Source: Octopus sinensis (lineage: Eukaryota). From it: a stretch of DNA of 64,000 nucleotides. Position numbers and translations under genes: made by a program. Shown one piece after another: positions 56,747 to 59,569 of the stretch; the stretch's first letter is position 1, and each line of letters opens with the position of its first letter. Below the pieces are notes generated by a model, which was given only the letters and a program-made list of their open reading frames with translations, ran no database searches and was not told the origin of the DNA. The DNA is taken from positions 31,620,001 to 31,684,000 of the forward strand of contig NC_042999.1 in assembly GCF_006345805.1 (NCBI RefSeq). The letters are read 5' to 3'.

Positions 56747-56959
56747 TGTAGATAGTATAAATATAAGTTAGTATAAATATATATGTGCTAGTATAAATAT
56801 ATATTTATGTATACGTGCTATAAATATTCACACATATACACGCATACACGCATGCCACGTAAATATATACGTACAGACACAGACGCACGCACACCACGCA
56901 AATATATATATATATATATATATAATATATATATAATATATATATGTATATATATAGTA

Positions 56960-57018
<59 letters not shown>

Positions 57019-57212
57019 CTATATATTAAAATAATAAATATTAGGCAATAAATCCAAATTTACAGGGAAAAAAACCAGATTTCGGATTAAATCCAATTTT
57101 ATCGTAAAATATTATATAATATTATTAGAGACAAAACCACTATTTTTACAAAAACAAACAAGGAAAGACTAATCATACATAAAATTTTACATAAAAAAGT
57201 CAAAAAAAACCG

Positions 57213-57254
57213 CCACTACAATTGTTCTTGTCCTGATCGACAATCTTCAGGGGG
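57213..57254 (-). ncRNA. Hammerhead motif, one A short in GAAA
   Basis: cccc-CUGAAGA-uuguc-gaucag-gacaa-GAA-CAAUUG-UA-gugg. Perfect 5-bp stem II and palindromic stem III. Confidence 0.7.
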
Positions 57255-57468
57255 ACTTCCAATATATGAGATATTGGTGTGAGAGTAGTTGTATTTTTGT
57301 AATATGGGCCCTGGATTCTAACAGAATCACAATGTCTTGCGGGTACATGCAGAACCTTATTGATTGCCATCCTTTGTTCAGTGGACCATGGTAGCTTAAC
57401 ACCGTAGCACTGTAATTCTTGTCCTGACTGGACACATGAGCCACGTGGAATGGTATCTTCTGCGGCAT
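57247..57468 (-). pseudogene. CEP104: Truncated, intronless CEP104 N-terminus (68 homologous codons plus YWKSP*)
   Basis: MPQKIPFHVAHVSSQDKNYSATVLSYHGPLNKGWQSIRFCMYPQDIVILLESRAHITKIQLLSHQYLI aligns without gaps to the vertebrate CEP104 start as I recall it (MPHKIGF..SA..L..H.P...GW.S.RFC..PQEIV..R..I.K.QLL.HQY.I). No good splice donor follows, and a stop comes 5 codons later. Confidence 0.88.
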
Positions 57469-57566
57469 TGTCACTGCTCTTATGAGCAAAATGATTCAAA
57501 GTCTCTCAATGATTTACAGTCTTTCTTTGGTTTCACTTGAAGGGAGAGAGAAGGCTATTTGCTGCG

Positions 57567-57608
57567 TGACGTCATAGAGATAAAGATTCTCTTCCGCTGT
57601 CCGCCATT
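57567..57608 (-). promoter_or_regulatory. Cluster of promoter-like motifs (YY1-like AATGGCGG, ETS-like GCGGAAG, CRE TGACGTCA)
   Basis: Three CpG-containing motifs within 42 bp, ~100-140 bp upstream of the CEP104 ATG. Function is untested. Confidence 0.35.
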
Positions 57609-57951
57609 CTATAATATACGACACAGAACGTGTTATTTACCAAGGGTTGAAAAAGTAGTAGCATTATATATATATATATATAATACCACACATATATATA
57701 TATTATATATATTATATAATACACCACATATCAATATCTACCTGGGACCCCTAGCTTTTGTTAAAAATCATGCCCTATACAATGAATAGTGAGGTGAGAA
57801 TATCATGCCCGGTTGAATAGGAGGACGTCGTAGAAAGCATGGGAGCTACACACGAGAACCACAGCGAAGCCGACTACTGACTGCTGCTGGAATAACCTCA
57901 TGCACAAGAATTGCTAGCATTTTGCATGACCAACGCATTATATATATATAT

Positions 57952-58327: not shown

Positions 58328-58368
<41 letters not shown>

Positions 58369-58586
58369 TCAATATAGGGTGGCAAAAAAAATTTTGTAGA
58401 ATTTTTTTGCCACCAGCGGCCTAGTGGAAAAAATTAAATAGTCATAGACCATTTTTAAGTTCAACATCAACAATCAAGGAACGGCCATAATAGGCCATTC
58501 ACCCACTAGAAATAACAGCCAAAGCTTCAACCGCAAAAAAGTCAATTCCGTAAACAGGAGAAAATTTTAAAAACATTTACCCTGTA

Positions 58587-58692
58587 ATTTCTTATACGAT
58601 GCACCGTTTCATCTGTTGTTAATGGTAAACTAACCTGATTAAATTAAATCAAGCCAATCTTCCATAGGCCCTCAGATTCTTCAGTAAGAAAT
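58587..58692 (-). ncRNA. Canonical type I hammerhead ribozyme, copy 1
   Basis: atttctta-CUGAAGA-aucug...cagau-GAAA-CGGUGCAUCG-UA-taagaaat. Confidence 0.92.
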
Positions 58693-59077
58693 AGCACAAG
58701 TCGGAACAGATATTTTCACGAGGCATTTCCGACCCTGCCAAGGTAATATCTGACCTAAAATTTTCAAATCATCGCACTCGCGCCAAATTTATCGGCAGCA
58801 AATAAATATAAGCCGTCGATTCCATTACGGAATTAACCAGAAAATTCATAATTAATCAATATAGGGTGGCAAAAAAAATTTTGTAGAATTTTTTTGCCAC
58901 CAGCGGCCTAGTGGGAAAAAATTAAATAGTCATAGACCATTTTTAAGTTCAACATCAACAATCAAGGAACGGCCATAATAGGCCATTCACCCACTAGAAA
59001 TAACAGCCAAAGCTTCAACCGCAAATAAAAGTCAATTCCGTAAACCAGGAGAAAATTTTAAAAACATTTACCCTGTA

Positions 59078-59184
59078 ATTTCTTATACGATGCACCGTTT
59101 CATCTGCTGTTTAATGGTAAACTAACCTGATTAAGTTAAATCAAGCCAATCTTCCATAGGCCCTCAGATTCTTCAGTAAGAAAT
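59078..59184 (-). ncRNA. Canonical type I hammerhead ribozyme, copy 2
   Basis: Same motif, 491 bp from copy 1. Confidence 0.92.
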
Positions 59185-59569
59185 AGCCACAAGTCGGAAC
59201 AGATATTTTCACGAGGCATTTCCGACCCTGCCAAGGTAATATCTGACCTAAAATTTTCAAATCATCGCACTCGCGCCAAATTTATCGGCAGCAAATAAAT
59301 ATAAGCCGTCGAACTTAAAAATGGTCTATGACTATTTAATTTTTTCCCACTAGGCCGCTGGTGGCAAAAAAATTCTACAAAATTTTTGTTCCCACCCTAT
59401 ATTGATTAATTATGAATTTTCTGGTTAATTCCGTAATGGAATCGACGGCTTATATTTATTTGCTGCCGATAAATTTGGCGCGAGTGCGATGATTTCAAAA
59501 TTTTAGGCCAGATATTACCTTGGCAAGGTCGGAAATGCCTCGTGAAAATATCTGTTCCGACTTGTGGCT

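Follow-up and report, generated by a model that had tools for sequence, protein, structure and literature searches.

How the 5' end of a host gene, stripped of its introns, comes to lie directly against a mobile element bearing a hammerhead motif is the question raised by one locus in the window, a stretch of 64,000 nt from the genome of Octopus sinensis. The earlier note had attributed this arrangement to the capture of a spliced CEP104 mRNA fragment, through template switching, by the pLTR of a Penelope-like element (PLE) or by a retrozyme.

An intron-free fragment of CEP104

The 68 uninterrupted codons at 57468-57265 (reverse strand) that had been recognised as the N-terminus of CEP104 match the Pfam family CEP104_N with an E value of 5.9e-13, which confirms their identity. 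When the encoded peptide is compared with the 2.72 Gb assembly (G000), three genomic matches are found: the window itself and two exons lying 31 kb apart on contig C10092. The intron separating these exons falls inside codon 38 of the parent gene and is absent from the window copy, in agreement with the earlier claim that an intron near this codon had been lost here. A search of the PDB with the 68-residue peptide produced no match, and a protein search for longer CEP104 relatives returned four candidates, none of which was scored.

The likeness to the parent gene continues upstream of the frame, such that 57606-57264 (reverse strand) represents exons 1-3 of CEP104 without introns (Table 1). 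The proposal that the parental gene be located and its exon junctions compared could be followed through: the three exons are found on C20 and C10092, and at both the exon 1/2 and the exon 2/3 joints of the window copy the introns have been removed exactly. Over exons 2 and 3, 263 of 271 bases are identical between window and parent. The copy of exon 1 is far more diverged; its alignment scores 69, against 47 for the best alignment elsewhere within 200 kb, and the C20 stretch, which ends CAAGT/gtgagt, is read as the putative exon 1 of the gene. The leader of about 100 nt that had been postulated is real, and is the 5' UTR of CEP104 itself, made up of 66 nt of exon 2 and approximately 72 nt matching exon 1.

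Table 1. Coordinates of features in the window
Feature	Position	Strand	Evidence
Penelope-like element exon, from its own intron acceptor to the long (tailed) 3' end	57028..57263	-	92-94% identity to 39 other full-length places
CEP104 5' UTR exon 1 copy	57535..57606	-	aligned to G000:C20:10955529-10955473, 54/72 columns
CEP104 exon 2 copy, 179 nt, start codon at 57468	57356..57534	-	G000:C10092:44975-44797, acag/GAAACC to AAG/gttgg, 5 differences
CEP104 exon 3 copy, 92 nt, ends exactly at donor	57264..57355	-	G000:C10092:13483-13392, ttcag/GTTCTG to ATAT/gtaag, 3 differences
Minimal type-I hammerhead motif, degenerate in window copy	57213..57254	-	read from sequence
(TA)n tract at 3' end, the family's usual target	56902..57026	.	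family copies end in TA tracts
Second family fragment, 5'-truncated, terminal part only, no hammerhead, no cargo	30824..30935	-	89% over 114 columns

Sequence from two runs, X14 and X9, which are regarded as RNA by guess (none of the runs that contain such sequence is recorded as RNA), continues from base 57264 onward into single-copy C20 sequence that constitutes exon 4 of CEP104 behind a normal acceptor. A 100-N gap of unknown size is present on C20 (10912747-10912846), 1.1 kb upstream of this exon, and it is likely that C10092 belongs there. In X9, exon 2 is preceded by other sequence, matching G000:C20:10941141-10941151 and followed by GT, which is likely to be a second 5' UTR exon of CEP104.

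With an intron-bearing parent elsewhere, its exons divided between C20 and C10092, the window copy has the intron-free structure of a processed retrocopy. The hallmarks of processing by a LINE are not found: there is no poly(A) and no readable target-site duplication in the TA flanks, and the copy ends in element sequence and a TA tract. Four of the five coding changes between the window copy and its parent alter the residue, only the parental letters are present in X14 and X9 where these runs cover the sites, and the CEP104 frame of the copy meets a stop five codons into the element. The copy is likely to be a dead fragment.

The insertion is estimated to extend from about 57610 to 57028, so the block of 57028..57940 delimited in the earlier note is too long: 57614-57940 consists of a TA tract and an older, unrelated repeat with 22 partial matches at 71-90%. 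The stretch 57567-57940 was rejected as sequence of the element family, and the fragment is not inserted between two parts of that family. The window copy has the tail of the long 3' end and no inverted arm. The terminal segment said to recur without CEP104 at 30826 was recovered as a second family fragment (Table 1). A contig from run X2 tracks the window over 57614-57660 and leaves it at 57614 for other sequence absent from it, representing either an empty allele or a paralogous repeat. Further along, at 58361-59312, a 493-nt unit is present in 1.9 repeats at 98%.

The joint between host and element sequence

On the host side the joint lies at the exon 3 donor (ATAT/gtaag) and on the element side at the element's own acceptor (ttttag/ATTGG), with zero ambiguous bases, and the host exons occupy the position of the element's own upstream exon. 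The earlier observation that no convincing donor follows codon 68 holds for the copy, the reason being that the joint itself is the donor that was used. As the joint is exact at two splice sites, it was very probably made by the spliceosome, rather than by template switching into a pLTR; what endures of the original reading is that a fragment of spliced CEP104 mRNA lies on a hammerhead-bearing Penelope-like terminus.

The contigs of run X1, which may be the assembled sample, span the exon 1/2, exon 2/3 and exon 3/element joints with 30, 27 and 26 letters on the short side, all three just below the 31 letters of the bridging rule, and this leaves some room for regarding the chimera as an artefact of assembly. 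Such an artefact would have to account for a join of two exons that lie 31 kb apart, intron-free and bearing eight private changes, that is also present in a contig from X2, a run from another study with another organism label. This contig extends 179 and 92 letters to the two sides of the exon 2/3 joint, and it agrees with the copy at five of the eight diagnostic sites. We consider an artefact scarcely credible.

The hammerhead motif

The hammerhead described as following CEP104 in the same sense is present as a hammerhead-like motif, degenerate in the window and with no match in Rfam. It is composed of a helix I of 4 bp, CUGAAGA, a helix II of 5 bp, GAAA, a palindromic helix III and a GUA site, and the full pattern is found in 62 of 71 distinct family copies. 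Relative to these, the window copy has a mismatch in helix I and one core A fewer; one of the two lesions could be an assembly indel. Neither the window nor a family copy contains a hammerhead according to Rfam, at gathering or E-value thresholds, the call resting on motif and pairing, and the lowest-energy fold of the motif is not a hammerhead. The motif resembles the minimal PLE hammerheads described in the accessible text of PMC4209133 in its type-I core, its palindromic helix III and its position adjoining the 3' end of an intron, as in Drosophila virilis Penelope. It differs in being a prediction that is degenerate in the window copy, and in that the octopus acceptor is 9 nt before helix I. 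With this spacing, the motif is independent of the upstream exon. Because the window copy runs through the predicted cut site, the hammerhead is likely to be a passenger here. According to the portion of PMC11167929 consulted, insertion in vitro does not require cleavage by the hammerhead.

Assignment of the carrier

The family to which the element exon belongs is abundant, with 1387 candidates, 40 of which were scored, at 92-94% identity. Among 29 other copies, which were chosen by their likeness to the window copy and are not a fair sample of the subfamilies, 14 are unspliced, with TTTTAG immediately ahead of the exon, and in 15 the exon is preceded by the upstream exon of the element itself, with two types of end. 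A GAAA/GT donor is found 1096-1148 nt upstream in six of the 14 unspliced copies; the remaining eight have no donor motif within 1.5 kb. The element has, on this comparison of copies, a GT-AG intron of approximately 1.1 kb, and both the retained and the spliced forms are inserted. In a second spliced form (L017, L015, L024, L025 and L029) the element's own exon ends 4 nt earlier, at GACTT, where there is no GT in the unspliced copies seen; this is possibly another subfamily or the product of a non-canonical donor. The 3' ends of the family fall at two points about 75 nt apart, 51 of 83 copies having the long end and 32 the short, which matches the two-start 'tail' of reverse transcription described in the part of PMC11167929 available. 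Inverted 5' arms are also found in insertions of the family.

Broken frames for a reverse transcriptase (RT) and, at the C-terminus, for a GIY-YIG endonuclease lie between the family's arms at two of six long loci, L150 and L152, and in L152 the frame has the same sense as the acceptor exon. No RT or GIY-YIG/endonuclease family was matched by Pfam in the element frames. In public data there are 53 relatives at E<=0.001, one of which has RVT_1 on record; the only named one is a protein of Hydra vulgaris. RWK and DKT both occur in the relative P0002, in a part of the frame that the family copies examined do not cover. The CxCX5C linker (CTCRDKSNC), CYLC and CRH are all present in L150 and L152, and these are motifs of the Hydra clade; copies of the family have TA flanks. 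As far as the accessible text of PMC8557442 describes them, the EN+ PLEs of that clade share with the octopus element a C-terminal GIY-YIG domain, CxCX5C, CxxC and CxH around E and N, TA targets and a hammerhead. The octopus element, which is placed by motifs, is longer than the clade's norm of under 3 kb, having a long repeated intron region and an asparagine-rich stretch; in L152 there are approximately 6 kb between the arms even though the front of the frame is missing. The asparagine-rich stretch, between RT and endonuclease at L150:4600-4900 and L152:4844-5010, resembles the N-rich inserts of Adineta vaga Penelope, judging from the available portion of PMC3846280.

From its frames and motifs, the carrier is assigned to an autonomous EN+ Penelope-like family of Hydra type with an RT and GIY-YIG frame. 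Retrozymes are non-coding elements without an RT of their own. Of the two carriers originally offered, the PLE is therefore retained and the retrozyme rejected, the family having its own RT/EN frame. Near-complete frames of other Penelope-like families, in which RWK and DKT motifs are present, were seen at L111:702-2790 and L236:821-2880.

Another arrangement is seen at L194/L195 (G000:C2:66800352-66800782). Here a donor within the frame of the element has been connected to the acceptor lying upstream of it, and the hammerhead exon together with the start of the frame forms a 408-nt unit in head-to-tail repetition. Such a structure would be expected from rolling reverse transcription of a back-spliced circular RNA; the alternative is splicing from one tandem copy to another.

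Foreign sequence at the same acceptor

The suggestion that other copies of the element might be joined to other inserts is borne out by 25 further loci with foreign sequence at the same acceptor base. These were found with a genome pattern in which the acceptor exon had to be preceded by G and T was barred from position -3 (a narrower version gave 16 matches). This pattern has 38 exact matches at 29 loci, all of which were inspected, and none in a reversed control. The 25 foreign sequences comprise 24 distinct pieces, L124 and L126 sharing theirs. The four loci dropped from the count are inversion joints of the element (L192, L193 and L222) and the joint to the element's own frame at L194/L195. 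The total of 25 is a floor, the pattern being blind to joints like that of CEP104 itself.

In eight of the 25 loci the foreign piece is repeated in an inverted arm, as is typical of Penelope insertions, which places the piece inside the insertion. These eight sister chimeras bear on a different account of the window copy, namely that a spliced chimeric RNA was turned by an unrelated LINE into a conventional processed pseudogene, an account suited by the lack of an inverted arm and of a readable target duplication in the window. The arms of the sister chimeras are those of Penelope, however, and the window copy itself, like other copies of the family, stops at the long 3' end within a TA tract and carries no poly(A). 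Copying by a LINE is extremely unlikely.

Three of the 25 foreign pieces were searched and two were traced to host genes, both ending at a GT donor. One comprises seven spliced exons of a C5 gene, which are 97-100% identical and end AAG/gtaaga, and the other a single exon of a C26 gene, ending AAG/gtagac. The parent of a rhodanese cargo (L112) was not found, the search result being filled by a repeat. Cargo frames include this rhodanese and a HAD hydrolase of 120 codons. In addition, a contig from X14 (probably RNA, at a depth of 3.1) joins an exon of a duplicated C27 gene, ending ACG/gta, to the same acceptor base, with 39 and 86 letters on the two sides of the joint; no genomic chimera of this exon is present in the assembly. 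All four traced pieces, from three genomic chimeras including CEP104 and one probable RNA contig, end at GT donors.

By hand count, AG is the terminal dinucleotide in 20 of the 25 foreign pieces (p 1.9e-6, assuming an A share of 0.33), a result that fits the ends of exons but also microhomology. The proposal that the element RT switched template from element RNA to CEP104 mRNA can appeal to these ends, which could be microhomology with the unspliced acceptor, and to the inverted arms of Penelope insertions here, which are themselves the marks of switches. Yet with a full CEP104 mRNA as template there would be nothing to direct a switch to the exon 3/4 boundary, the host side of the CEP104 joint ends in AT without any shared base, and GT donors are the end point of all four traced pieces. 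Template switching is thus very unlikely, and splicing remains the preferred origin of the CEP104 joint. For some of the single-arm loci, chance truncation at the acceptor or an AG-microhomology joint may be the explanation, and the 25 need not all be splice products.

The cargo shared by L124 and L126 is a Gypsy-like piece. At L236 (G000:C22:28402700-28404100) and L238 (G000:C10642) unspliced element forms the inverted arm, while in the main arm the acceptor adjoins a fragment of a Gypsy-like RT, which suggests different RNA forms as the sources of the two arms; these two related copies are 96% alike, and represent either a second insertion or an alternative assembly. The chimeras at L213 and L217 have the same repeat-derived 73 nt at their end, 86% alike, which suggests a cryptic donor in another repeat. 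By eye, the cargo of L115/L116 contains an apparent hammerhead of a different Penelope-like family.

Route of capture

The route that we favour, with some reserve, is that a CEP104 transcript was spliced onto a same-strand copy of the element lying in the gene, and that the chimeric RNA was copied into a TA tract by the element RT. The donor of the host transcript, that of CEP104 exon 3, would be joined to the acceptor of the resident copy. By analogy with the system in the accessible text of PMC11167929, everything that the element needs for protein binding and the start of reverse transcription would lie downstream of this acceptor, such that any RNA spliced to that exon could act as a substrate for the element RT. 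On balance, we think it probable that an intronic copy, whether polymorphic, lost or missing from the assembly, furnished the acceptor in cis.

A matching element source was found downstream of none of the four traced donors. For CEP104, there is no acceptor-bearing copy in 14.5 kb of intron 3, which has a gap, or in the 110 kb beyond; C10092:4632-4475 was considered as the source copy in intron 3 and rejected, being a relative of only 73-78% without an acceptor. The C5 gene has no matching copy in the 139 kb downstream of its donor, and the C27 gene none in 174 gap-free kb. In the C26 gene, of which 100 kb was examined, one same-strand copy with an acceptor lies 27 kb downstream; this was rejected as the source of the C15 chimera, from which it differs at two subfamily sites and in being without the chimera's tail.

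The lack of a matching downstream copy at all four donors is what would be seen if host donors had been joined by trans-splicing to separate element transcripts having an acceptor but no donor of their own, which were then copied, no element ever having been in the host gene. Also in keeping with this are the X14 chimera, with no source in 174 gap-free kb and no genomic chimera of its exon in the assembly, and the existence of orphan acceptors, represented by the eight of 14 unspliced copies without a donor motif within 1.5 kb. Trapping insertions are, on the other hand, expected to be rare and short-lived, such that their absence from one assembly would be expected under capture in cis too; furthermore, X14 is another sample whose genome is unseen, the CEP104 intron is gapped, and introns can exceed the ranges scanned. 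We accordingly hold trans-splicing to be possible but the less probable course. In its broadest form, this reading would make the PLE a genome-wide trans-splicing acceptor, whose hammerhead-bearing exon is joined to the donors of unrelated host pre-mRNAs and whose telomerase-like RT converts the products into gene fragments, dozens to hundreds in number, that lack introns and are often duplicated in inverted form, a suggestion that we put forward only tentatively. Capture in cis remains the route that we prefer.

Comparison with known systems and significance

Host first exons are spliced into the acceptor of a retrotransposon, and the chimeric RNA retrotransposed, in the exon trapping and 5' transduction of SVA_F1/MAST2, as described in the accessible part of PMC4859970. 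A host donor is likewise joined to an element acceptor in all four traced octopus cases, three of which are genomic chimeras. The SVA is a non-autonomous primate element moved by L1, whereas the octopus carrier is autonomous and Penelope-like, its acceptor being that of its own regular intron; it also differs in its inverted arms, in inserting at TA targets without poly(A), and in the number of its cargoes, of which one genome has at least 24 distinct ones. As in the Penelope capture of Adineta vaga and in Terminons, a Penelope-like terminal repeat appears to be enough in cis to move host sequence. In those systems, so far as the sections of PMC3846280 and PMC6431247 available describe them, the cargo keeps its introns or lies between elements or pLTRs, and no splicing into the element is described; the octopus cargo, by contrast, has no introns and stands in place of the upstream exon of the element. 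The literature within reach, which did not extend to subscription papers and supplements, yielded no report of capture by splicing through the intron acceptor of a PLE.

The likely conclusion is that a Penelope element takes up host exons through RNA splicing and spreads copies of them to new sites, and the significance of the finding rests on this family-wide process, not on the window copy. PLEs are noted for retaining introns and for mobilising genes that contain them; here the element's own acceptor appears to work as an exon trap, yielding processed gene fragments without LINE hallmarks at at least 26 loci, counting those found with one narrow pattern and the window. Retrocopies and shuffled exons in animal genomes thus have one more source. 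For mobilisation in vivo, the 235 nt that follow the acceptor are likely to suffice. The use of one fixed acceptor base provides a simple tag by which trapping in cis and trans-splicing could be told apart in matched DNA and RNA. If trans-splicing were to prove true, the family would represent a LINE-independent route to retrocopies and exon shuffling.
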